A stretch of DNA of 64,000 nt from Candidatus Omnitrophota bacterium (GTDB lineage: Bacteria; Omnitrophota; Gorgyraeia; B26-G9). The notes beneath the pieces are model-generated. The model was not told where the DNA came from and did not search any database. It was given only the letters and a program-made list of their open reading frames with translations. Both the position numbers and the translations under genes were made by a program. Location: the NCBI GenBank assembly GCA_018817585.1, contig JAHITE010000081.1:4549-68548 (forward strand). The letters run 5' to 3'. Of the stretch, positions 1-12,974 are shown piece after piece (the stretch's first letter is position 1; every line of letters begins with the position of its first letter).

Positions 1-154
1 GCAATAAAGGATCATTAGTGTGCATCAAGCGAATATGCACAAAATGTCCAGGCTTAAGTTTAGCCGGGATCTTCGGCATGCTCAGCTCTAGATAATAAAC
101 ACTGGCTGACAGCTGCTGATTTTTTTCAATTTTTGCCTTCAAATCATATAACAT
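1..154 (-). CDS. pyrK: Dihydroorotate dehydrogenase electron-transfer subunit PyrK, N-terminal fragment. The gene continues beyond the window start.
   Basis: Minus-strand translation from the ATG at 152-154 gives MLYDLKAKIEKNQQLSASVYYLELSMPKIPAKLKPGHFVHIRLMHTNDPLL with no stop before position 1. It matches the PyrK N-terminal FAD-binding region (the ...PGQFV.V... pattern) and lies in pyr operon context. Confidence 0.65.
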   Translation of the reverse strand, partial: MLYDLKAKIEKNQQLSASVYYLELSMPKIPAKLKPGHFVHIRLMHTNDPLL

Positions 155-252
155 CTATTTACTCCATATTGCGTTGTGCGTACTACGCAAAAACACGTCT
201 TTTCGCTAAGTCTGAGCATGCATCGTGCAGTCTCAGCCGCGCGTTCTCACTA

Positions 253-272
253 TTTTGACATCCCTGTCAAAA
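253..272. promoter_or_regulatory. Perfect 8-4-8 palindrome TTTTGACA-tccc-TGTCAAAA in the pyrK upstream region. Candidate operator for a dimeric regulator.
   Basis: The inverted repeat is read directly from the sequence. It sits in the 266-bp mutM-pyrK intergenic leader, which has elevated GC. Confidence 0.35.
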
Positions 273-420
273 TTACGTTCAAAAGCGCCGCTCAAAGAGA
301 ATTTTTGCTCAGCGAATCAGCTATTAGCTATAACTGATTTCCTTATGTCATGTAACTGTTTTTTCTTCTGTTTTTCACTTTATAACTTTATGAACTTTAC
401 AAACTTTCTACTATGCACTA

Positions 421-1239
421 CTACTTTTGACATTTAGAACAAAAAAATGTTCCTCTACCTCCTAAAACAATTCTTTGAATTTTATTTTTGCAAACCAGAC
501 AAGGCTGAGCTTTTCGGCCATAGACATAAAAATGCTGTGAAAAGTTTCCCAGCTGACCATGTCCGTCGCGATAATCACTAAACGATGACCCGCGGCATTT
601 AATCGCCTTTTTTAAAACCTGTTTAATATTTTTAAACAGCAAGCACACTTCAGCTTTTGTTAAACTACAAGCTTGGCGATCCGGCATTATTTTGGATAAA
701 AACAATGCCTCTGCGGCATAAATATTGCCAATGCCGGCAATAAAATGCTGATCAAGCAGCAATGGTTTTATCTTGGTTAACCGCCTGCTTAACTGTTGGC
801 TAAATCCATTTAATTTAAATTCCTTGCTCAGGGGCTCTGGCCCCATTTTAGCCACCACGCTCAGCTGCTGCCAATCTTTGACTAAACGCAGTTCACCCAA
901 GGTACGCTGATCATTGTAGCATAAATAACCGCCATTGGATAATTTAAAACTAACCCGCGCTTTTTTATCAAAAGTACCGTAAACCAATTGCCCGGTCATG
1001 CGCAAGTGCACAGTCAGATATAAAGTTTTTTTATCTTTGGTTTCAAGCTCGATAACCAGAAGTTTACCTCTGCGGATTATTTGCCTTATCCGCGCGTTTT
1101 TTAATCCAGCCTTAAACTTATTGATTTCCGGCTGTTTGACAACACTGGACCGAAACACATCGACTTTAATGATTGTCTGATTTAAGATCACTTTTTCCAA
1201 ATCAGATTTAATTGTTTCAACTTCCGGAAGTTCAGGCAT
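421..1239 (-). CDS. mutM: Formamidopyrimidine-DNA glycosylase (Fpg/MutM)
   Basis: N-terminus MPELPEVE (catalytic Pro2/Glu3). C-terminal zinc finger CLVC...CSKC. 272 aa. Confidence 0.9.
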   Translation of the reverse strand: MPELPEVETIKSDLEKVILNQTIIKVDVFRSSVVKQPEINKFKAGLKNARIRQIIRRGKLLVIELETKDKKTLYLTVHLRMTGQLVYGTFDKKARVSFKLSNGGYLCYNDQRTLGELRLVKDWQQLSVVAKMGPEPLSKEFKLNGFSQQLSRRLTKIKPLLLDQHFIAGIGNIYAAEALFLSKIMPDRQACSLTKAEVCLLFKNIKQVLKKAIKCRGSSFSDYRDGHGQLGNFSQHFYVYGRKAQPCLVCKNKIQRIVLGGRGTFFCSKCQK

Positions 1240-1274
1240 AACTCACACCAAATCTATTTTAGTTATCTCTACAC

Positions 1275-1757
1275 TTAAACTAGTCCATTTGCTTTTTGCT
1301 CAAAAATATTGGCATTTTTAACATCATACTGCTGAACAAGAAAAGACCTGACTTCCTCCGCGCCTTTGGCTTTGACAATCTCAGCCATTTCCCGCAGACA
1401 TTTATCTTTACCTACTCCGCTGCCATAGGTAGCAAATAAAATTATTTTTTTACCAGCAAGACCTTTAACTTTATCAATATAGCCGCGCATCGCCGGAGCC
1501 ATGCCAAAAGCCCATACCGGAGTGCCCAGAGCAATCAAATCATATTCTTTTAAATCCAAAATTAAATCCTGATTTAAATCAGCCTGGACTTTGCGGAAAG
1601 CGCGCACGCATTGTTTTAGAAAAAACTTTGATTCATCCGATGGCTTAAGCTCAAGCATGTCAGTTTGAAATTTACGGGTAATTTTGTCTTTGAGAAATTC
1701 CGCGGTTTTTCTGGTATTTCCGGAATAAGAATAATAGACCACTATTGCTTTTTTCAT
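1275..1757 (-). CDS. Flavodoxin
   Basis: MKKAIVVYYSYSGNTRKTAEFL FMN-binding N-terminus. 160 aa. Confidence 0.8.
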   Translation of the reverse strand: MKKAIVVYYSYSGNTRKTAEFLKDKITRKFQTDMLELKPSDESKFFLKQCVRAFRKVQADLNQDLILDLKEYDLIALGTPVWAFGMAPAMRGYIDKVKGLAGKKIILFATYGSGVGKDKCLREMAEIVKAKGAEEVRSFLVQQYDVKNANIFEQKANGLV

Positions 1758-1799
1758 TTTATTTCTTCCCTATTTTATTTAACCCCTACAGACAATCCA

Positions 1800-3068
1800 T
1801 TAAAACAAATTCCATTGTTTTTCAGTTTTCTTTGTTTTCTCAGTTTTTTTTACGTTTTTATTTTTAGCCGCGCCCTTGCCAAAGATACTAATAATCCCAT
1901 ATTCACCGTCATATCCGGGTTTAATCACACATTCAGCGCGCCGAACTTTTAAAATTCCCTGGATAATCCTTGGCGGTAAAACAGCTGTAAGTTCGCTTTC
2001 AGTTTTATGCATTAAAATATCAAATTCTTTACCCAGTCCGGTTACAGCCTGATCATAGGCAGCAGCTACTCTTTTTGATGTCCGGCCAACTTCCAAAGCC
2101 TCGGCAATAATTTCTTCCAGAGGAATCAGGTTTTTAAACGGTATCGCATTATCCGGGACAAATCCTTCCGAACGATCAGCTAACTCTTCCACCCGGCTGG
2201 TAACACCCACAGTAACGGCTTTGCCGCATTGCGGACAAAGCCCCTTATTTTTTTTTGTTTCCCGCGGAGATAATCTTACCTGGCAATTACGGTGTCCATC
2301 ATAATGATATTTACCTTCTTCGGGAAAAAATTCAATGGTATAGAGAAATCTTTTTTTGTCTTTTGTCTTTAAAACATCTCTGATTTCAAAATAAGACATT
2401 TCACAATCAAACACATTAGCCTCTCTGCCGATTTTTTGCGGTGAATGGCAATCTGAATTGGAAATTAAACTGTATTTATCCAAAGCGCTCAAACGCCAAT
2501 TCATTGCCGGATCAGAGGAAAGTCCGGTTTCCAGGGCAAAGATATTTTTTGCCTGTTCTTCAAAACAATCTTCAATTAAATCAAATCCTGATTTTGAACC
2601 AAACAAGCTGAACCAGGGTGTCCAGATATGCGCTGGCACCAGCATACAATTGGGATCAATTTCAAACACAATTCTCGCCAGTTTAGCCGCGTCCAATCCG
2701 AGAATCGGCCGGCCATCAGCACGCAGATTGCCGATTGCGGACAAGGCTTTGTTAATTTTATCAACTGTTTCAAATGAAGGCGCGAAGATCAGATTATGAA
2801 TCCGATAACAGCGATTGTTTTTAGAATAAATACTGCTGATCTCAGCCGTAAGCATAAAATGCACATCATCATAAACAAATAATCCCTTACCGCTTGGTTT
2901 GAGCACTGATTTCAAATGATCCAGCCAAAGATGATGCGTAAAATCGCCTGTGCCCAAAAGATCAATGCCTTTAATTTTTGCCCATTTAGCCAAATTAGGC
3001 AGATCCATGGTTGGAGATGTAGCGCGGCTGTATTTAGAATGAATATGCAAATCAGCAATAAATTTCAT
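1800..3068 (-). CDS. PHP-domain endonuclease Q (EndoQ)-like protein with zinc finger
   Basis: Motifs DLHIHSKYS, GTGD, PAHIWTPW, SNSDCHSP..GRE, CPQCGK, PLEEIIAEA and PGYDGEYGIISI, co-linear with Pyrococcus EndoQ. 422 aa. Confidence 0.75.
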   Translation of the reverse strand: MKFIADLHIHSKYSRATSPTMDLPNLAKWAKIKGIDLLGTGDFTHHLWLDHLKSVLKPSGKGLFVYDDVHFMLTAEISSIYSKNNRCYRIHNLIFAPSFETVDKINKALSAIGNLRADGRPILGLDAAKLARIVFEIDPNCMLVPAHIWTPWFSLFGSKSGFDLIEDCFEEQAKNIFALETGLSSDPAMNWRLSALDKYSLISNSDCHSPQKIGREANVFDCEMSYFEIRDVLKTKDKKRFLYTIEFFPEEGKYHYDGHRNCQVRLSPRETKKNKGLCPQCGKAVTVGVTSRVEELADRSEGFVPDNAIPFKNLIPLEEIIAEALEVGRTSKRVAAAYDQAVTGLGKEFDILMHKTESELTAVLPPRIIQGILKVRRAECVIKPGYDGEYGIISIFGKGAAKNKNVKKTEKTKKTEKQWNLF

Positions 3069-3081
3069 AAGTACCCTTTAA

Positions 3082-4377
3082 TTAGTCTGCCTGATAAATG
3101 ATTTTCCCATTGCTGATTGTCAGCGCAACAGCTCCCTTGACTTTTCGGCCGATAAACGGAGTGTTTTTTGATTTGGATTTAAAATTAGCTAAACTGATAA
3201 TTGATTCTTTTTCGGGATCAAAAATTACCAGATCAGCATTTGAGCCTTCGGCAATATAACCTTTATCCAGCCCAAGAATCTTTGCCGGATTATAAGCCAT
3301 TTTTTCACACAACTGATTTAAAGTCAATATCCCTGGTTCCACCAGTTCGCTGATTGCTAAACTCAGGGCTGTTTCCAGTCCAATGATCCCAAACGGCGCA
3401 TGATCATATTCCACATCTTTTTCTGATTCAGCATGCGGCGCGTGATCAGTGGCAATACAATCAATTGTCCCGTCTTTTAAACCTTGCTTAATTGCCTGAA
3501 CATCAGCTTTTGCCCGTAACGGCGGATTAACTTTTGTATTAGTGTCATAGCCTAGCACAGCCTCATCAGTTAAGCTAAAATGATGCGGTGTTGCTTCACA
3601 GGTAATTTTTAAACCATCTTTTTTCGCTCTTTTAACTAAGACCACTGATTCTTTGGCACTGATATGGGCAATATGCAGACAAGTATCTGTATAGCGGGCA
3701 ATTTCAATATCACGGGCAATCATCGTTACCTCAGCCAGCGTGGGAATACCTTTTAATCCCAGTTTTGTCGAGATATAGCCCTCGTTCATAACCCCGCCAA
3801 AAGAAAGGTCATTATTTTCCGAATGAGCAATCACTAGAATATTCAGCATTGAGGCATATTCCAAAGCGCGGCGCATCAAATCGGCATTCATAACGCCATT
3901 ACCGTCATCTGAAATCGCGATTATTCCCGCGTTCTGCATATCCGCTATTTCCGAGAGTTCCTCGCCCTTTAAGCCTTTTGTGATCGCGCCAATCGGAAGC
4001 ACATTTATCAGCGCTGTTTTTCTCGCTTCAGAAATTACAAACTCGACAACTCCCTGATTATCAATCACCGGATTAGTATTAGGCATACAGCAGACAGTGG
4101 TAAATCCACCGGCAGCCGCGGCCATGCTTCCGGTTTTAATAGTTTCTTTATATTCATAGCCTGGCTCTCGAAGATGCACATGCATATCCACAAAACCCGG
4201 CATAAGCACTTTATCCTGCGCGTCGATAATTTCAGCATCTTTGTCTTTTATATTTTTGGCGATTTTAGCAATCTTATTATTTTCAATTAAAACATCCAGC
4301 TGATCATCAAGATTACTCTTCGCGTCAATTACTCTGGCATTTTTTATCAGTAATTTCATATTATTGCTCCTGTTCAT
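3082..4377 (-). CDS. pyrC: Dihydroorotase
   Basis: [10 protein letters not shown] metal-binding motif; DHAPH motif; 431 aa; pyr operon context. Confidence 0.9.
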
Positions 4378-5305
4378 CAGAATTAGCTTGTGACACCAAA
4401 TAGAGTACTGCCATTCTCACCGCGATTCCATTAGTCACCTGCTCAAGAATCACGGAATAAGTCCCATCAGCAACATCCGGCATAATTTCAATCCCCCGAT
4501 TCATTGGGCCGGGATGCATTACCAATACATCTTTTTTCGCGTATTTTTCCAGCTTTTCCTTGCTCACTCCATACTGAATCGCGTATTCGCGCATTGAAGG
4601 AAACAATCCGGCTTTTTGGCGTTCTTTTTGAATCCGCAGGATATTAATCACATCCGCGCCTTTTAATGCTTTGGATAAATCCGTGGTAATATTTACTCCC
4701 ATTTTTTCAATTTCCCGCGGTAAAAGCGTTCTCGGCGCGCAAATCGTTACATTCGCTCCCAGCTTTTTCAATCCCCAGATATTGCTGCGGGCAACCCGTG
4801 AATGCGTTATATCACCGATAATCGATACATTCAAGCCTTTTATTTTACCTTTTTTTTCTTTAATCGTAAACATATCAAGCAATGCTTGCGTAGGATGTTC
4901 ATGACAGCCGTCTCCGGCATTGATAATCGACGGCCCCATGGATTCAGCCAATGTATGCATTACTCCGCTGGAAGAATGTCGGAGAATAATCGCGTCGACT
5001 TTCATCGCTTCAATGTTTTTAAAAGTATCTTTCAGGGTCTCGCCTTTTTGAATCGCGCTGGTTGATGTGGCAATACTCAAAGTATCCGCACTTAACCTTT
5101 TTGCTGCCAGTTCAAAACTTGTTCTCGTCCTAGTTGACGGTTCAAAGAAGAATAGTACAATTGTCTTGCCGCGCAAAGTCGGTACTTTTTTAACTGAGCG
5201 GGTGGAAACTTCTTTAAACGATCCAGCTGTTTGCAGAATCAACTCAATTTCCTGCGCGGACAATTCCTCAAGTCCCAAAAGATCTTTTCTTGTCCATTCA
5301 TTCAT
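4361..5305 (-). CDS. pyrB: Aspartate carbamoyltransferase catalytic subunit
   Basis: STRTRTSFE carbamoyl-phosphate-binding motif; HPTQAL; 314 aa. Confidence 0.9.
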
Positions 5306-5856
5306 TGGCGTTTTTCCTTTTGATTGATTAAAACTATCTCATCTTTTCCATCTTCCTCAACTAATCTGACCTCTACATTTTCCTTCAAGGTTGTCGGTAA
5401 GTTCTTGCCCACATAATCCGCTCTGATCGGCAGCTCGCGGTGTCCGCGGTCAATCAATACAGCCAGCTGAATATTCTGCGGTCTGCCCAGATCAATCAGT
5501 TCATCCAAAGCGCAGCGAATCGTTCTGCCGGTAAACAAAACATCGTCAACTAAAACAATCTTTTTATCATCGATATCAAAATCAACTTTGGTGCTGTGCA
5601 CAACCGGACAGTAATCAATCATCGTTAGATCATCGCGGTAAAGAGTTATATCCATTATTCCCACCGGAACATCTGAGCCATCGATTTCTTTGATCAAATC
5701 AGCGATTCTCTGGGCAAGATAGGCTCCCCGGCAGCGGATACCAACAATCGCCAGATCCTCAGTCCCTTTATTGCGTTCGAGTATTTCATGACTAATCCGC
5801 ATCAAAGTACGTTTTATCATCTTATCGTCCATTAGATTTGCTTCTTTTTTCAGCAT
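5302..5856 (-). CDS. pyrR: Bifunctional pyrimidine operon regulator / uracil phosphoribosyltransferase PyrR. The start was moved to the SD-supported ATG; the raw ORF extends to 5895 through the attenuator terminator.
   Basis: PRPP-binding motif [34 protein letters not shown] matches the PyrR N-terminus. AGGAG SD lies 5-6 nt before the ATG at 5854-5856. Confidence 0.85.
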
Positions 5857-5877
5857 AGGGTCTCCTTGAATTAGACA

Positions 5878-6021
5878 TAAAAAAAACCTGCTCACTTACC
5901 TCAGATCGGTATAGTTTAAGCAGGCTAAAAACATCATTTTTTGACTCCTTGCTAGTCTCTCTGGACTAATTTAAAGGTTTATCTTTATATTAAATATAGC
6001 ATAGGCCGGTATGCTTGTCAA
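5878..6021 (-). promoter_or_regulatory. pyr operon promoter and PyrR-dependent transcription attenuator.
   Basis: Sigma70-like promoter on the minus strand: -35 TTGACA (6016-6021), 17-nt spacer, -10 TATATT (~5990-5995). PyrR-binding loop GUCCAGAGAGACUAGCAAGGAGUC on the minus strand (5943-5967). Intrinsic terminator: hairpin 5886-5923 followed by T8 (5878-5885). Confidence 0.7.
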
Positions 6022-6202
6022 GATAAACTAATAAAAAAAGCGGTTCATGAAATATCTGGGTTTTGACAATATTTTGCTCTAGTTTTTGTTTTAAACTCAA
6101 TTCCTGCTGCGCGAATAAACCGGAATTTGGACAGCCAAAAACAAGAATTAAACTGAAAACTACTTTTATTATTTGATTAATCTTTATCGCGTTAATTTTC
6201 AT
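5990..6202 (-). CDS. Small putative lipoprotein (70 aa)
   Basis: Signal peptide with lipobox LVFGC. Sits between the glycan cluster and the pyr promoter. No recognisable domain. Confidence 0.35.
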   Translation of the reverse strand: MKINAIKINQIIKVVFSLILVFGCPNSGLFAQQELSLKQKLEQNIVKTQIFHEPLFLLVYLDKHTGLCYI

Positions 6203-6232: not shown

Positions 6233-8398
6233 TTATTTTTGCTGATCCAGCGCCATCAGTTCCAGGGCTTTTAAATGCATGGTTTTATATTCCTCATTTC
6301 GCTCCTGCTCTTTATACAATAAAGCCAGATTATAATATGCTTCCAGATAATCAGGATTAAGCTCAATTGCTTTAAGATAATCTTTTTCCGCTAAAACCAT
6401 TTGGCCAGTAGATTCATAAACCGCCGCCCGATGATTATAAACCGGAGCAAATTGCTGATCAATTAAAATAGCCTGGTTAAACACGGCTAAGGCCTGATCG
6501 GATTGGCCTAAGGCCGCATAAGCTGAACCAAGATTAACTCTGGCGCCAAGATCATTAGGATCAAGCTCCAGGACTTTATTATAAGCCAAAATTGTCTGAT
6601 CATATTTTTTCAATTTAAACAAAGCCAGGCCCTGATTATTATAGGCCGCTGAATCCGCGGGATCATGGGCAATGACCTGCTCAAATATTTTTAAAGCCGA
6701 ATCAAACTGATTATTTTCCAAATCCAAAACTCCGACATTATACAAGATATCCAGATTATCGGGATTTATTTTACAAGCCTGCTCAAAAGATTTTATCGCC
6801 TTGGCCGTCTGGCCTTTATAGCGAAAAGCCGTGCCTAAATTAAAAAACCAGCGGGATTTGTCATCCTGGGCAGCGCCAAACAGATTCAGATTGCAGTAGA
6901 TATATAAAACAAGCAAAACTAAACCATATTTTAGAAATATTCTAAAGTTCTTATTTCTTAATTTATCAAAAAGCCAAACAGCGGCATATGCCGCGTAAAT
7001 CACAAAATAAGGCACAAGCACAGCGCGATATCTGCTGACCACGAAAAATATGACCATAACCATTAAATGTGCCAGGATAAAGCAATTCAGAACCATTATT
7101 TTCTGATTGGTTTTATGCCAGGAAATAAATATTCCGAGCAAAGCCAAAGGCGCGATAACCCCAAAAGGAAAACTAATAAACCGATTGGAAAAAACCAAAA
7201 CAGTCAGCAATGATGACCATAAACGAAAAAAATAAATACTCTGGTTTTCCGGAATTTCATAAGCACTAAACAAATAAAATATTTTCCTCAGAATCAAACT
7301 AGTAAAATCCACTGGATGCTGAATAATATATTGCCCTGTTTTAAACATCCAGTAATTCGAGACCTGAGAATTATTCAAATTCTTATTAGTTTGCGATTGA
7401 GCGACTTTGATTGAAGATACCCAGACATTATCCTGCCAGCCTTGATAAGCAAAATCCCGGCTGGGCGGGGCCGCGGTTTTACCGTCAGCTAAAGGATTAT
7501 TACCAATATAAAGATTTATCCCAATGGTTGATGAAAGCAGGACAAACTCTCCGCCTTCAATCAGATTCCGCAAAGATAAGGGTAAAACACTAAGAAAAGC
7601 TCCCAGACAAAGCAGAATCAAAGGTTTAAACGCTGTTTTATTCCAGGAAAAAGGTTTATTTGTTTTTATTTTTTGGTTTACAGTCAGGGGTAACTGTTGG
7701 TCTGTTGAATTTTTATTTTCCCCATCGGCCCTAATCTCGGATAAACAATCCGCTTGCGCGAAGTGGCAACCTTGCTGTTTAGTTAGAAAATAATAAACAT
7801 AAGCGCAAAGCAAAGGCAAAAATAAAATCACATTCGGACTAGTTTGCAGACAAATCCCGAAAAAAATACCGCTGCTCAGCCATTTCCAGGGTTTTGGTTT
7901 TTCAATTGTGCTGAAGATAATTAATAACAAATTAAGATTTAAAAATATAGTCAAACCAACGCTTAAAAACTCAGCGTCAAAATAAATTAATACTCCGTAA
8001 AGCGCGCAAATAATTCCCGCAAGCAAACCAACTCTTCGACCAAACAGTTTTTTAGCCAGCAAATAAACCAGCTGACAATTGATCGAACCTAAGATCATCT
8101 GCGCGGTTTTTATGGCAAAAAAATCACTACTAAATAACCGCATCAATACAGCCAGAAAATAAACATACAGCGGTACCCGGGGAGTAACCAGCCCCTTGAG
8201 CAGCCAGTCTCCGGCTACCATTTTTTGCGCGTAGATATAATGACTAAGCGCGTCAATTACCGGCGAATCAAAAAAAGGACAATGCTGATATTGATTTAAA
8301 TAAACCAGCCGAAAAAACAAAGCCAGGATAAAAATCAGGCTGATGCTGATAAAATCAAATACGAAAAATGTTTTTTTGATATTCTGTTCTTGGTTCAT
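6233..8398 (-). CDS. Polytopic GT-C-fold glycosyltransferase (PMT_2/ArnT-like, GT39/83-type) with a C-terminal TPR-repeat domain
   Basis: About 12 N-terminal TM helices with a PMT/ArnT-like layout. The C-terminal ~230 aa contain about six TPR units (AIKSFEQACKINPDN..., ALKIFEQVIAHDP...). The start overlaps the upstream stop (ATGA). Confidence 0.6.
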   Translation of the reverse strand: MNQEQNIKKTFFVFDFISISLIFILALFFRLVYLNQYQHCPFFDSPVIDALSHYIYAQKMVAGDWLLKGLVTPRVPLYVYFLAVLMRLFSSDFFAIKTAQMILGSINCQLVYLLAKKLFGRRVGLLAGIICALYGVLIYFDAEFLSVGLTIFLNLNLLLIIFSTIEKPKPWKWLSSGIFFGICLQTSPNVILFLPLLCAYVYYFLTKQQGCHFAQADCLSEIRADGENKNSTDQQLPLTVNQKIKTNKPFSWNKTAFKPLILLCLGAFLSVLPLSLRNLIEGGEFVLLSSTIGINLYIGNNPLADGKTAAPPSRDFAYQGWQDNVWVSSIKVAQSQTNKNLNNSQVSNYWMFKTGQYIIQHPVDFTSLILRKIFYLFSAYEIPENQSIYFFRLWSSLLTVLVFSNRFISFPFGVIAPLALLGIFISWHKTNQKIMVLNCFILAHLMVMVIFFVVSRYRAVLVPYFVIYAAYAAVWLFDKLRNKNFRIFLKYGLVLLVLYIYCNLNLFGAAQDDKSRWFFNLGTAFRYKGQTAKAIKSFEQACKINPDNLDILYNVGVLDLENNQFDSALKIFEQVIAHDPADSAAYNNQGLALFKLKKYDQTILAYNKVLELDPNDLGARVNLGSAYAALGQSDQALAVFNQAILIDQQFAPVYNHRAAVYESTGQMVLAEKDYLKAIELNPDYLEAYYNLALLYKEQERNEEYKTMHLKALELMALDQQK

Positions 8399-9885
8399 GA
8401 CTTTAATATTGGAATAAGTAGTTTATGAAAAATTGTTCTAAAGAAAAACATTGGTTTTCTAAATAAGAATATATTATAATTCTGGAAAAATTTAAATGGA
8501 TTTCTTAAAAATAATTTAAGGTTATAAGTCCAATACCAGTTTCTCCGGGTTTTTTCCAAAAACCTACTGTCAAATTCCTCGGTTTCAAATTTTGACTGAA
8601 AATAATCGAGGCTTGTATCATCCAAATCATTTAAATAGCCTTTTTGCCGGCAATATTCAAAAATCCGAGTCCCGGGCAAAGGATTGGCAATAAACAAAGA
8701 CACCCTGTCCAAAGCCAGCTTGTTCATAAATTCTAAAGTCTTAAATATCTGGGCCTTTGTTTCCTGCGGAAAACCAATAATAAAAAAACCATAAGTATTT
8801 ATTTTATGCGCTTTGATTATTTTGCTTATTTCCTCAATTTGCTTTAAATCCGTTGGCTTGTTTAAAACATCGCGCAATATATTCGGATCACCGCTTTCCA
8901 CTGCCAGAGTTATTTCATAACAGCCGCTTTGCTTCATTAAGCTGATCATTTCCGGATCAAGGGTCTGAGCGGCAATGCCGTTAGGAGTGTTCCAGGTAAA
9001 ATTAAATTTACGGTCAATCATTGCTTGAAACAATTTTTTCGCCCGCGGTTTATCCAAAGTCAGATTATCATCAAAGAATTTTATTTCTTTAATCCCCATA
9101 GCCTTTAACTGGCACATTTCCTGAATTACATTTTCCACAGAACGCGGCCGATACTTTCTACCCCAAAAATGACAGGAGCTGCAAAAAGCGCATTCAAACG
9201 GACAGCCGCGGGAGGTGATCAGATTCATTGCCGGAGTCTGTCGGCTGACCAGGCCCATGGGCAAATTGATTTTATGATATTTTTCTAAGGGTAATAAATC
9301 TCTGGCGGGAAATGGAATCAGATCAATATTTTCAATCCACTGGGTCTTGGGATTTATCTGAACTATATTATTATTTCTAAACGCCAAACCATCAATCTTC
9401 GCGTAATCAGCTTTATTGCTAATCGCGGTTAAAAGATTTTTTAATGTCTCCTCCCCTTCGCCCAGAATAATAAAATCAAGCTGCTGATTCTCCAGGCATT
9501 TTTCAGCTAAAAAACTGGGGTGTGAACCGCCGACGATAGTTACAATGTTTTCGGAAATGCTTTTAATATCACGGCAGATCCGATTAACAATGCTAATCTG
9601 ACTGGAATAAAGACAAGTTATGGACACAGCATCCGGCTCGAAATCAATAATCTGCTGTTTTATCTGGCTAAAAGACAATCCATAGCGCAATAAACCATTG
9701 GCTAATCTGGTTTCCTGCGCATATCCCTCAACTGCCGCATCAAGGAGTTTAACTTGAAAATCATCGCGCAGATAAGCAGCCAGATAAGTAATTCCCAATG
9801 GCGGCATTATCTGTTTAACAGACTCCGGCGAAAAAACAACCGGAGGAAAAATTAGCATTAGTTTTTTTATGGGTCTATCAATCAT
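8395..9885 (-). CDS. B12-binding-domain radical SAM protein (class B rSAM)
   Basis: N-terminal cobalamin-binding Rossmann-like region. Radical SAM cluster motif SRGCPFECAFCSS (CxxxCxxC). 496 aa. Paralog of the next gene. Confidence 0.8.
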   Translation of the reverse strand: MIDRPIKKLMLIFPPVVFSPESVKQIMPPLGITYLAAYLRDDFQVKLLDAAVEGYAQETRLANGLLRYGLSFSQIKQQIIDFEPDAVSITCLYSSQISIVNRICRDIKSISENIVTIVGGSHPSFLAEKCLENQQLDFIILGEGEETLKNLLTAISNKADYAKIDGLAFRNNNIVQINPKTQWIENIDLIPFPARDLLPLEKYHKINLPMGLVSRQTPAMNLITSRGCPFECAFCSSCHFWGRKYRPRSVENVIQEMCQLKAMGIKEIKFFDDNLTLDKPRAKKLFQAMIDRKFNFTWNTPNGIAAQTLDPEMISLMKQSGCYEITLAVESGDPNILRDVLNKPTDLKQIEEISKIIKAHKINTYGFFIIGFPQETKAQIFKTLEFMNKLALDRVSLFIANPLPGTRIFEYCRQKGYLNDLDDTSLDYFQSKFETEEFDSRFLEKTRRNWYWTYNLKLFLRNPFKFFQNYNIFLFRKPMFFFRTIFHKLLIPILKS

Positions 9886-11419
9886 TGTCTTTATCTATTT
9901 TTTGTTTTTTATTGAAATTAAAAAAACCGACAATACCTTTTGCGATAAGCCGGAAACTCATTATCGGATGAATGAAAAATAATTTAAGATATTTTTTAAA
10001 AAACCGAAAAGGATGCCTTAGAAAAACTCTTGTTAAATAAGCATTAAAGTTCTTCTGAATAAAACTTTCAAGTTCATGGCTGGCAAATTCCTCTGTCTGA
10101 AAATAAGAACAATCATAATCCACATCATCAGCCAAAAAATCTTTTTCAATATAACCTTTTCCCTTGCACAGCTCAAACAAATCTGAACCAGGCGTTGGAT
10201 TAGCAATAAAGAAAAAAGCTCCGTCCAAATCCATTTCCTTAGCAAACTCAAAGCTTTTCAACATCTGCTGTTTTGTTTCTCCGGGAAAACCTGAAATAAA
10301 AAAAGCCATTGTCTGAATCTTAAGCTGTTTCATTTTTTTTACCAGCTGTTTTCCCTTATTCAAATCCAATGGTTTGCGAATAATATTTTTCAAAACATCC
10401 TGATCGCCGCTTTCAAAAGCAATGGTCAGTTCATAACAGCCGCTTTGACGCATCAGCTCAAGCATCGGCTCATCCAAAGTCCAAATCGCAATCCCATTAG
10501 GCGTATTCCAATGGATATTAAGTTTGCGGTCAATCAAGCCCTGAAATATGGCTTTAGCTCTTTGTTTATCAAATGTCAGATTGTCATCCGTAAACTGAAT
10601 TTCTTTTATCCCGTATTTTTTAACCAGCATTTCAATTTCATTTAAAACATTCTCCGCGGAACGCGCGCGATATTGATTACCCCAATAATTGCGTGAAGCG
10701 CAGAAAACACATTGGGCGGGACAGCCCCGACTGGTGACCACCGGAGCATTCTTGCGGCTTTTATAAGTAAAGCTGAACGGCACTGCTTTTTTTTCATAAA
10801 ATTTCATGGGCAACAGATCATAAGCCGGAAACGGAAGGCTGTCTAAATCAGCAATAAAATTCTGTTTAGGATTAATAATGATTTTATTATCTTTACGAAA
10901 AGCCAGGCCGTCAATCTGGGTATAATCTTTTCCCTGGTCAAGGGTTTTTAGTAGTTTAGAAAAACTCTCTTCTCCCTCTCCCAGAATTATAAAATCAATT
11001 AAAGCCGCGGATTCCAAGGTATGCTTTGCTAAAAAAGTCGGATGAGAACCGCCAACAACAGTGATTATCTGAGGATTCAATTTCTTAATCTTTTCTGCTA
11101 GTTTAATAACTTCATTAACCTGGCGGGAAAATAAACAAGTTATGCCAACAACCTGAGGCTTAAACTGACTTATCATGGCCACTATTTCTTCCTGTTTATA
11201 GCCGTAATAATCCCACTTACTATTTTTCGGTTTAAATGATTGGAACTTTGCCCGTCCGTCAATTATTTTAACATCAAAATCTTTTCTGATCACAGAAGCC
11301 AGATAAGCCAAACCTAAAGGCACAGAACAATGCTGAAAATTTGCAGCCAGAACTTTACCGGGCGGAGAAACAAGCATTACTTTTTTGATTTTCCTATTTA
11401 ACATTATGAATAACCACAA
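9878..11419 (-). CDS. B12-binding-domain radical SAM protein (class B rSAM), tandem paralog
   Basis: TSRGCPAQCVFCAS motif. The C-terminal FLRHPFRFFKKY parallels FLRNPFKFFQNY in 8395-9885. 513 aa. Confidence 0.8.
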   Translation of the reverse strand: MWLFIMLNRKIKKVMLVSPPGKVLAANFQHCSVPLGLAYLASVIRKDFDVKIIDGRAKFQSFKPKNSKWDYYGYKQEEIVAMISQFKPQVVGITCLFSRQVNEVIKLAEKIKKLNPQIITVVGGSHPTFLAKHTLESAALIDFIILGEGEESFSKLLKTLDQGKDYTQIDGLAFRKDNKIIINPKQNFIADLDSLPFPAYDLLPMKFYEKKAVPFSFTYKSRKNAPVVTSRGCPAQCVFCASRNYWGNQYRARSAENVLNEIEMLVKKYGIKEIQFTDDNLTFDKQRAKAIFQGLIDRKLNIHWNTPNGIAIWTLDEPMLELMRQSGCYELTIAFESGDQDVLKNIIRKPLDLNKGKQLVKKMKQLKIQTMAFFISGFPGETKQQMLKSFEFAKEMDLDGAFFFIANPTPGSDLFELCKGKGYIEKDFLADDVDYDCSYFQTEEFASHELESFIQKNFNAYLTRVFLRHPFRFFKKYLKLFFIHPIMSFRLIAKGIVGFFNFNKKQKIDKDND

Positions 11420-11558
11420 TTTTCAATATTTTAGATTAATGTTCAAGATTATAATTACCAATATGATATATGTTTACAATTCTAACACAATCTTTTTGAT
11501 TACACAAACTGGTTTATTTGACTTTATTGATTAGTTATGCTAAAGTACGATTACAAAA

Positions 11559-12974
11559 ATGAATATCGCGCTAATCCGTCCCCCAAAAATTACCGGAGCA
11601 TTTGAAAAAATCCTGATTCAGGAACCGATAAATCTTGTTTATTTAGCTGCTTTTTTAAATGCCAACGGATTTAATACTGTGATTTGGGATTTTGAAGTTG
11701 AGCAATTTTCCCAGCAAATTATAGCGCGAAGAATTGCTGACAATAATATTTCAATTGCCGGCATTACTTCCATGACTCCAACAATCAATAACGCGCATAA
11801 TATCGCTAATTTAATTAAACTCATAAATCCCGCGATTGTAACTATTGCCGGCGGAGCACATGTTTCCGCAATCCCCGAGCAGAGTTTAAACGAATTTCCG
11901 GGATTTGATTATCTGGTTTTGCGCGAAGGTGAAATCGCTTTGCTCAAACTCTGCCAAAGCATCAGAGATAAAAAGTCAGCTGATAAAATCAGCGGCCTGG
12001 CTTTTTTAAAGAACAAACAAGCGGTGATAAATCATCCAGCGGAAGAAATTGAGGATTTAGACAGCCTGCCCTTTCCAGACCGGAAGCTTTTAAACCGCGA
12101 TTTATACAAAAACATGTACGCCGCCGGAATTAACATCAGCAATAAACGCGCGACTGTTGTCTTTACTTCCCGCGGCTGTTCTCAAGACTGCACATTCTGT
12201 GCTGTTAAAAAAACCAGCGGCCCTAAAGTCAGATTCCGCAGCGCGGAAAATGTTATTGCTGAATTAAAGCAATGCAAAGACATGGGCTATAATCATATTA
12301 CTTTTGAAGATACCAATTTAACCTTAAATCAGCAAAGATTTATTCAAATCTGCAATGGCTTAAAAATATTGGGATTGACTTGGGATTGTCAGACAAAAGT
12401 CAACATGGTCAACAAACAGCTAATATCTCTGATGAAAGACTGCGGCTGTTTAAAAATTGCTTACGGTGTTGAATCCGGCAGTCCTAAGATCTTAAAACTG
12501 ATGAAGAAAAACATTACGCTTGAGCAGATAAAACAAGCATTTGAACTTACGCATCAAGCCGGAATTGTTACCTGTGCTTTCTTTATCTTAGGTTCGCATC
12601 CTGAAGAAACAGCCCAAGACATTAAACTGACTGAGCAAATAATAAAAAAAATCAAACCTGATGTATTTCAGCTAGGAATTATCTGTCCCTACCCCGGCAC
12701 AGAAATTTATGATATTATGCAGGAATACGGTTTAATCAAAGACATTGACTGGAATAAATTTAATTTCATGCATTCTGTTCCGCCCTGGGGCACAAAACAT
12801 TTAACAGCCCAACAATTAGTCAAATTTCAAAAACAAATCTATACCCGTTATTTATTCAGCTGGCATTTTATCGGTTTTTTCTGCAGAAAGATGCTCAATC
12901 CCAAACAACTGCCGCAACTATGCAAGCTCTCATTTTACATGCTAAAGTATTTGCTTTTTGAGAAAAGGAATTAA
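11559..12974 (+). CDS. B12-binding-domain radical SAM protein (class B rSAM)
   Basis: TSRGCSQDCTFCAV motif. Divergently transcribed from 9878-11419. Upstream -35 TTGACT, 17-nt spacer, -10 TAAAGT. 471 aa. Confidence 0.8.
   Translation: MNIALIRPPKITGAFEKILIQEPINLVYLAAFLNANGFNTVIWDFEVEQFSQQIIARRIADNNISIAGITSMTPTINNAHNIANLIKLINPAIVTIAGGAHVSAIPEQSLNEFPGFDYLVLREGEIALLKLCQSIRDKKSADKISGLAFLKNKQAVINHPAEEIEDLDSLPFPDRKLLNRDLYKNMYAAGINISNKRATVVFTSRGCSQDCTFCAVKKTSGPKVRFRSAENVIAELKQCKDMGYNHITFEDTNLTLNQQRFIQICNGLKILGLTWDCQTKVNMVNKQLISLMKDCGCLKIAYGVESGSPKILKLMKKNITLEQIKQAFELTHQAGIVTCAFFILGSHPEETAQDIKLTEQIIKKIKPDVFQLGIICPYPGTEIYDIMQEYGLIKDIDWNKFNFMHSVPPWGTKHLTAQQLVKFQKQIYTRYLFSWHFIGFFCRKMLNPKQLPQLCKLSFYMLKYLLFEKRN

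Follow-up and report, generated by a model that had tools for sequence, protein, structure and literature searches.

The closest described counterpart of the locus treated here is the pyr operon of Bacillus subtilis (pyrR-pyrP-pyrB-pyrC-pyrAA-pyrAB-pyrK-pyrD-pyrF-pyrE), in whose 5' leader a PyrR-binding hairpin precedes an intrinsic terminator and which carries three attenuators. For the closeness of pyrimidine and base-sanitation genes, the nearest precedent is the Escherichia coli K-12 neighbourhood mutM-rpmGB-yicR-dfp-dut-slmA-pyrE-rph-yicC...gmk-rpoZ (locus L162, 3.806-3.826 Mb), where dut, whose product keeps uracil out of DNA, adjoins pyrE. Here we describe a pyr operon of a Candidatus Omnitrophota bacterium, located in the first 6 kb of a stretch of 64,000 nucleotides (contig JAHITE010000081.1, positions 4,549 to 68,548; hereafter the window). 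Its genes, all on the minus strand, are arranged as pyrR-pyrB-pyrC-endoQ-flavodoxin-mutM-266-nt spacer-pyrK, so that the genes for endonuclease Q (EndoQ), a flavodoxin-like protein and the DNA glycosylase MutM (Fpg) stand inside a pyrimidine operon.

Comparison with B. subtilis revealed that relatives of the window share the gene order pyrR, B, C, carA, carB, K, D, F on one strand, as well as the leader with its PyrR-binding hairpin and terminator. The Omnitrophota cluster differs in having one attenuator instead of three, in the absence of pyrP and pyrE, and in the presence of up to seven unrelated passenger families, endoQ and mutM among them; the window lineage additionally lacks carA-carB. 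We read the locus as a Bacillus-type pyr operon (pyrR-B-C-carA-carB-K-D-F) of one Omnitrophota clade, with passengers at three junctions and expressed as a single PyrR-gated unit, and give this reading a probability of about 0.6.

To assess how far the layout is conserved, the window proteins were mapped onto each of the 80 species-level loci closest to the window. Among the 73 loci with enough upstream sequence, pyrC directly preceded endoQ on the same strand in 69; the gap had a median of 5 nt, and several pairs overlapped. The four exceptions bore Candidate Phyla Radiation (CPR) or unclassified labels. In loci with at least 9 kb of downstream sequence, pyrK was present downstream in 42/45 and mutM, upstream of pyrK, in 40/45. 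PyrC is about 50% identical across most of the related genomes, and only about 3-6 genomes, all among the closest, retained the neighbours on either side of the cluster (the gene for the TPR glycosyltransferase and hisK), so that the cluster persists beyond the background synteny. The gene order is significant because it is conserved in the related loci, whereas 0/80 control loci showed it.

To describe what lies between endoQ and pyrK, the open reading frames (ORFs) of this interval were clustered and then scanned against Pfam. The recurring intervening genes were all on the same strand, and carA (17 loci) and carB (33 loci) were found between endoQ and mutM. The common layout reconstructed from these loci is pyrR-pyrB-pyrC-[Mut7-C]-endoQ-[flavodoxin]-[SLOG cluster 4]-carA-carB-[UPF0047/YjbQ]-mutM-[PEMT/ICMT-like]-pyrK-[TauE fragment]-pyrD-pyrF. 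Passengers thus occupy three junctions: after pyrC (endoQ, often with a flavodoxin, SLOG or Mut7-C gene), before pyrK (mutM, often with a YjbQ or PEMT-like gene), and between pyrK and pyrD (the TauE fragment). Since carA-carB lie between endoQ and mutM in relatives, the cluster is a Bacillus-type pyr operon with passengers at fixed junctions, and it has been reduced in the window lineage; judging from the gene content of its relatives, carAB, the SLOG gene and the YjbQ gene have been lost from the cluster. No tblastn hit to carA or carB was obtained elsewhere in the 64-kb window.

The earlier note on this DNA, made from the sequence alone, had called for a comparison of pyr operon organisation in relatives and had described the arrangement as an unusual, interrupted operon. 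The comparison bears out the adjacencies, and the arrangement is indeed unusual relative to model bacteria; within this Omnitrophota clade, however, it is the norm. Likewise, "interrupted" is apt insofar as passengers are intercalated, but it describes only part of the history, as the relatives with carA-carB show that the window lineage also lost genes.

Three further features of the related loci were observed. About 15 relatives carry an extra gene of approximately 150 aa with a Mut7-C RNase domain (PF01927, 142 bits) between pyrC and endoQ (L009, L017, L030, L037, L042, L048, L049, L053, L055, L058, L065 and L072-L074). Many relatives have a half-size carB (about 520-540 aa) without an adjacent carA (L007, L011, L017, L025, L027, L033, L035-L037, L043, L045, L054, L059, L061 and L076), and others have full carA together with a carB of 1085-1127 aa. 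Typical pyr-endoQ contigs also occur under the labels Planctomycetia, Paceibacterota or Margulisiibacteriota (L003, L021, L026, L034, L041-L043 and L074), and these non-Omnitrophota labels are probably taxonomic mislabels of bins.

Analysis of the leader upstream of pyrR revealed the elements of a PyrR attenuator. The pyr-leader promoter is the best promoter match of the region, and the same TTGACA...TATA(C/T)TT occurs upstream of the leader in most related loci. Rfam family RF00515 matched positions 5981..5877 of the minus strand over its full length (model positions 1-115; 46.6 bits, E 3.4e-4), and the PyrR motif of the window, AGUCCAGAGAGACU, has one mismatch to the ARUCCAGAGAGGYU-like consensus loop. 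A lineage covariance model of the PyrR hairpin (R1), built from 54 leaders and run over 1.26 Mb of loci, scored the window hairpin at 42.5 bits (E 4.7e-7). In each of 63 loci it detected a single PyrR site, which invariably preceded pyrR; no other hit in the 1.26 Mb was better than E about 0.65. The arms of the hairpin co-vary across the 54 leaders, and the same leader recurs in relatives. An equivalent of the leader terminator, a hairpin followed by a U-run, was present in 58/66 related loci in a terminator scan. The exact motif CCAGAGAG was rejected as a marker of PyrR sites and replaced by the covariance model; as the loop is variable (CUUGAGAAG, CUGUGAAG and others), just 7 leaders contained this motif. 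A second PyrR site or attenuator inside the cluster was sought by Rfam (E<=1), by a motif search allowing 3 mismatches and by the covariance model over the 1.26 Mb, and none was found.

A possible short ORF also lies in the leader, and the 3' arm of the PyrR hairpin would serve as its Shine-Dalgarno sequence (AAGGAG). In 54/54 aligned leaders, an ATG follows 5-12 nt (mode 8) past an invariant AAGG and opens a short ORF of 9-55 codons, which in all 54 runs over the 5' arm of the terminator. PyrR may therefore act by occluding the ribosome-binding site of the leader ORF, so that the terminator would fold once the leader is no longer translated; a short antiterminator pairing (CAAGG/CCUUG) may also occur. 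This conserved ORF over the attenuator is a difference from B. subtilis and recalls the translation-coupled PyrR mechanism that Van de Casteele and colleagues reportedly proposed for Thermus in 1997.

The scan for hairpins with a U-run found no terminator at the pyrC-endoQ or endoQ-flavodoxin junction in any locus, and its other hits were scattered, weak and mostly within coding sequence. The three best promoter matches on the contig (11/12) lie in the pyr leader, past the hisK-like gene and further downstream. None of this strength falls inside the cluster, the next on the strand coming only after the hisK-like gene downstream of pyrF, and no promoter scoring at least 10/12 was found in any intergenic gap of the window cluster. 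A single PyrR-gated unit is favoured, on indirect evidence, because there is one PyrR site, no conserved junction terminator, no 11/12 promoter within the cluster, and gaps are tight. Co-transcription as one PyrR-gated polycistronic unit is thus strongly suggested by the sequence, in agreement with the earlier note, which had placed these genes under PyrR attenuation, and we infer PyrR control of endoQ and mutM.

Under this reading, transcription would start at the single consensus promoter and then meet the single PyrR attenuator. When UMP- or UTP-bound PyrR occupied the leader hairpin, the downstream terminator would form; when pyrimidines were scarce, RNA polymerase would read through pyrR, pyrB, pyrC, endoQ, the flavodoxin gene, mutM and pyrK-D-F. 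EndoQ is predicted to nick DNA 5' of deoxyuridine (dU), deoxyinosine (dI), deoxyxanthosine (dX) and apurinic/apyrimidinic (AP) sites with a two-metal PHP site, and it would probably be tethered to the beta clamp through its C-terminal motif. MutM/Fpg would remove oxidised purines, namely 8-oxoguanine and formamidopyrimidine (Fapy) lesions.

Several observations weigh against a single PyrR-gated unit. The RF00515 score of 46.6 falls short of the gathering score of 54. A promoter-like sequence, TTGGCA-18-TAAAAT (10/12), lies inside mutM, and promoter-like hits in the region are no commoner than in shuffled sequence. With a genome GC content of 37-44%, promoters may be situated within upstream coding sequences, and the 266-nt mutM-pyrK spacer of this lineage could harbour an unrecognised promoter. 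All conserved loci belong to one clade, and inheritance by descent therefore contributes to the counts. Finally, repression of repair while pyrimidines are plentiful has no obvious logic.

The passengers may alternatively have hitchhiked without regulatory coupling, as an old insertion kept by a compact genome and served by their own weak promoters or by constitutive read-through, with no meaningful PyrR control. The functions of the passengers are mixed (flavodoxin, SLOG, Mut7-C, YjbQ, PEMT, TauE fragment), which makes accretion look likelier than design, and passengers are gained and lost between lineages; the promoter-like sites of 9-10/12 in coding regions and the non-conserved spacer ahead of pyrK point in the same direction. 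However, pyrC and endoQ have remained a median of 5 nt apart, sometimes overlapping, at PyrC identities of about 50% while the surrounding synteny decays, no terminator sets the passengers apart, and the three strongest promoter matches of the contig are all intergenic, with none within the cluster. We regard uncoupled hitchhiking as rather unlikely, although a neutral explanation of the layout as such is plausible.

A stronger claim, advanced in part by the earlier note, is that selection has wired base repair (EndoQ and Fpg) into the PyrR regulon, with repair tracking pyrimidine synthesis and the position of endoQ held by translational coupling; this we consider unlikely. EndoQ has been reported from most Euryarchaeota and "some limited groups in Bacteria" (PMC6202378). 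In our exhaustive HMMER search (E<=1e-30), the family comprised 1035 clusters at 50% identity, mostly bacterial, and the nearest 150 clusters were bacterial-type; a word-indexed search gave at least 8000 candidates, and narrow peptide patterns recovered at least 545 EndoQ relatives in one-genome-per-species contigs. EndoQ is found widely among Omnitrophota and CPR-type genomes; elsewhere, it is encountered as a fusion with UvrD helicases. The description of the enzyme in the earlier note as mainly archaeal, with sporadic homologues in bacteria, is outdated because the family has more than 1000 mostly bacterial clusters, and the survey corrects the view of EndoQ as rare in bacteria. To our knowledge, Bacillus pumilus is so far the only source of a characterised bacterial EndoQ.

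Outside Omnitrophota, most of the nearest relatives measure 1000-1200 aa and join an EndoQ module to a UvrD/Rep helicase of superfamily 1. Their EndoQ domain shares 46-58% identity with the window protein and has the same H-C-C-C zinc site, and many of these proteins end in QLxLF. As a control, 80 metagenomic EndoQ-UvrD fusion loci were inspected, and none had pyr genes, mutM or a flavodoxin gene within 8 kb. A general association of EndoQ with pyr genes outside Omnitrophota was accordingly rejected, the sole hint being locus L079, and the embedding in a pyr operon is specific to the stand-alone Omnitrophota EndoQ clade. In L079 (2601-5903; Candidatus Nealsonbacteria, CPR), EndoQ and a DUF498 gene are followed by a 536-aa fusion of PyrD (DHO_dh) with a PyrK Fe-S domain, possibly a second, independent EndoQ-pyrimidine adjacency. 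Fusions of about 1050-1150 aa (P0123, P0126 and P0141; loci L082-L161) are common in soil, gut and fermentation metagenomes, and a few EndoQ genes are interrupted by inteins, with a LAGLIDADG intein in P0121.

An adaptive coupling would mean that selection holds endoQ and mutM under PyrR so that repair of uracil, hypoxanthine and oxidised bases rises with pyrimidine synthesis, one possible reason being that shifts in the dUTP/dTTP pools alter uracil misincorporation. Two passengers are base-damage repair enzymes, a recurrent SLOG/LOG-like passenger comes from a nucleotide-processing superfamily, and the adjacency of endoQ is very stable. The unrelated CPR genome of L079, with endoQ two genes from the fused PyrD/PyrK, and the E. 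coli genes mutM, dut and pyrE, which lie no more than 5 kb apart but do not form one operon, are also in keeping with it. On the other hand, the sister EndoQ-UvrD clade shows no pyr association, the remaining passengers are unconnected to repair, L079 is one case, and no rationale is established for switching off repair at times of pyrimidine abundance. Adaptive coupling in this sense therefore appears improbable.

The likeness to E. coli holds at the neighbourhood level only and may reflect an ancient neighbourhood or coincidence. Beyond pyrK, the same contig (L001, ENA ERZ27247128) continues with a 118-aa TauE-like gene, pyrD, pyrF, a histidine-kinase gene and yicC-gmk-rpoZ-coaC-coaB. The contig and E. 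coli thus have mutM, a pyr gene, yicC, gmk, rpoZ and coaBC in common, over about 8 kb in the contig (L001 11830-20037, mutM-pyrKDF-hisK-yicC-gmk-rpoZ-coaC-coaB) and about 12 kb in E. coli, where they belong to separate transcription units on both strands and neither PyrR nor EndoQ is present. B. subtilis, too, has yicC-gmk-rpoZ-coaBC downstream of its pyr operon.

The assignment of the PHP protein to EndoQ was examined against the enzyme of Pyrococcus furiosus (PfuEndoQ, PF1551). With phmmer, residues 5-395 of the window protein aligned with residues 5-382 of PfuEndoQ (PDB 5ZB8 and 7K30) at E 6e-55 and 32% identity. An AlphaFold2 model (predicted local distance difference test 81.9, predicted template modelling score 0.84) matched 5zb8_A in Foldseek over 409 columns with template modelling (TM) scores of 0.82/0.87, covering the full three-domain architecture, whereas generic PHP esterases (2anu, 3o0f and 2yb1) matched the N-terminal half only, with TM about 0.3. 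The essential metal ligands of PfuEndoQ are H8, H10, E76, H84, H139 and D193, and its deaminated-base pocket comprises H139, T142, E167, L170 and D193 together with the main chain of L168, G169 and N191 (PMC5961232). In the window protein, H8, H10, E76, H91, H147, D206 and H208 match all PfuEndoQ ligands, including H195, and these positions are invariant in 116-118/118 Omnitrophota homologues and 143-145/145 cluster representatives. The pocket residues T150, E180, G182, L183, N204 and D206 are kept, and the lesion pocket is invariant in 118/118 Omnitrophota sequences; L168 of the PfuEndoQ pocket corresponds to T181, at a position that touches the base via the main chain.

The predicted zinc site differs in its first ligand. 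It comprises H259, C262, C278 and C281 (H-x2-C...C-x2-C) in the window protein and C249, C252, C268 and C271 in the archaeal C4 type, and His occupies the first position in 118/118 Omnitrophota sequences and 140/145 related cluster representatives. Archaeal EndoQ binds PCNA via a C-terminal PCNA-interacting protein (PIP) box, and beta-clamp motifs have already been seen in bacterial homologues (PMC4858679). The window clade carries the bacterial QLxLF type in place of the PIP box: the window protein ends in KQWNLF, and in 99/120 close homologues the last residues are Q-x-x-L-F (QLSLF or QLDLF in most cases), the canonical beta-clamp pentapeptide. The window protein and PfuEndoQ therefore both have a C-terminal motif of the clamp-binding type and differ in that the window gene lies in a pyr operon. 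The identical protein is named "endonuclease Q family protein" at NCBI, and Pfam PF27218 (MJ0043_C) is recorded for the window protein. Our copy of Pfam-A, which had no EndoQ core model, gave 0 hits, and EndoQ was identified through PDB and NCBIfam searches.

By sequence and fold criteria, the window PHP protein is a true endonuclease Q, as the earlier note had proposed. That note had named a generic PHP phosphoesterase without the EndoQ zinc finger as the outcome that would speak against it; this candidate was ruled out because the alignment, the conserved residues and the full-length fold all match EndoQ. A nucleotide-directed PHP phosphoesterase recruited to pyrimidine metabolism in place of a DNA repair nuclease is very improbable: the gene does stand directly after pyrC, PHP domains include nucleotide phosphoesterases such as those matching the N-terminal half, and TIGR00375 gives 186.7 bits, short of its 326.6 cutoff, but against this stand the three-domain EndoQ fold, the retained zinc and DNA-binding helical domains, the invariant pocket, the prevailing QL[SD]LF-type clamp motif, and the fusion of the nearest relatives to UvrD helicases.

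All components of the locus are of known kind (EndoQ, Fpg, a PyrR attenuator and a Bacillus-type pyr operon). What is new is the variant of the operon: throughout an uncultivated clade, endoQ and mutM are stably housed in a pyr operon under PyrR control. A full-text literature search returned no paper combining endonuclease Q with Omnitroph*, and two base-damage repair enzymes stably embedded in a PyrR-controlled pyrimidine operon were not found in the searchable literature. If the coupling is functional, the locus would exemplify in nature how the expression of DNA repair can be linked to the sensing of nucleotide pools, and bacterial EndoQ would gain a defined regulatory context; if selection maintains it, it would constitute a previously undescribed regulatory link from nucleotide-pool state to DNA base repair. 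If it arose by mere hitchhiking, it is a clean marker of operon passenger accretion at fixed junctions.

The coordinates of the features are summarized in Table 1. The gene order given by the earlier note was borne out with refined coordinates, and profile matches were obtained for pyrR, pyrB, pyrC and mutM.

Table 1. Features of the pyr-endoQ-mutM cluster and its leader (window coordinates)
Feature	Coordinates	Strand	Description
Promoter	6021..5993	-	Sigma-70-type, TTGACA-17 nt-TATATT; TG precedes the -10 hexamer; score 11/12
PyrR-binding hairpin	5980..5942	-	AACCUUUAAAUUAGUCCAGAGAGACUAGCAAGG; anti-antiterminator element
Leader ORF (possible)	5937..5896	-	13 codons, MMFLACLNYTDLR; crosses the 5' arm of the terminator
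Attenuator terminator	5925..5879	-	Intrinsic; CCUGCUUA...UGAGCAGG then U8; read from the sequence, within the RF00515 match
pyrR	5856..5302	-	184 aa; bifunctional pyr regulator and uracil phosphoribosyltransferase; NF003549, 243.9 bits (cutoff 138)
pyrB	5305..4361	-	Aspartate carbamoyltransferase catalytic chain; NF002032, 411.5 bits (cutoff 263); OTCace_N and OTCace domains
pyrC	4359..3082	-	Dihydroorotase, 425 aa; TIGR00857, 474 bits (cutoff 279); Amidohydro_1 domain
endoQ	3068..1800	-	Stand-alone endonuclease Q, 422 aa; PHP, H-C-C-C zinc and helical domains; C-terminal QWNLF clamp-type motif
Flavodoxin-like gene	1757..1275	-	160 aa; Flavodoxin_4, 38.1 bits (cutoff 24)
mutM/fpg	1239..421	-	272 aa; formamidopyrimidine-DNA glycosylase and AP lyase; NF002211, 283.5 bits (cutoff 212)
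mutM-pyrK spacer	420..155	-	266 nt, non-conserved
pyrK (5' end)	154..1	-	Electron-transfer subunit of dihydroorotate dehydrogenase B; gene continues beyond the window

The ORF finder placed the start of pyrR at a GTG at 5895, within the terminator; this was rejected in favour of the ATG at 5856, which is preceded by AAGGAG, and pyrR is also called as 184 aa on the ENA contig. The pyrR and pyrB genes overlap by 4 nt, pyrC follows the pyrB stop after 1 nt, and the subsequent gaps are 13 nt (pyrC-endoQ), 42 nt (endoQ-flavodoxin) and 35 nt (flavodoxin-mutM). The flavodoxin-like protein reached no NCBIfam equivalog cutoff in the NCBIfam profile search, and its gene comes after endoQ in 18/48 related loci. 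MutM begins with MPELPEVE, also reaches TIGR00577 (280.8 bits, cutoff 203.3), and has Fapy_DNA_glyco, H2TH and zf-FPG_IleRS domains, all over their cutoffs.

The mutM-pyrK gap is 6-50 nt in other close relatives. The scan found no promoter-like or terminator-like site in the 266-nt spacer, and Rfam (E<=1), the motif search with 3 mismatches and the lineage covariance model found no PyrR site there. A structured or conserved element in the spacer was likewise rejected, with a fold z-score of -1.3 and an alignment to the closest relative that is confined to the pyrK ribosome-binding site. The pyrK fragment in the window gave a weak match only (NF000799, E 1.5e-3); the complete gene on L001 encodes 280 aa with NAD_binding_1 and DHODB_Fe-S_bind domains.

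Just beyond the window start, between pyrK and pyrD, lies the 118-aa TauE-like gene (L001 13761-14117). Its match to TauE/SafE is confined to the C-terminal half (profile positions 127-237), and the gene is conserved at 54-89% identity in many relatives. Directly upstream of the pyr promoter is a gene for a 721-aa PMT_2 glycosyltransferase with TPR repeats (window 6233-12974 region), adjoined by three paralogous B12-binding radical SAM genes (8395-9885, 9878-11419 and 11559-12974), one of them divergent. Between the glycosyltransferase gene and the pyr leader, a 70-aa ORF (5990-6202, minus strand) has a lipobox-like LVFGC signal, and the pyr promoter sits in its 3' end.

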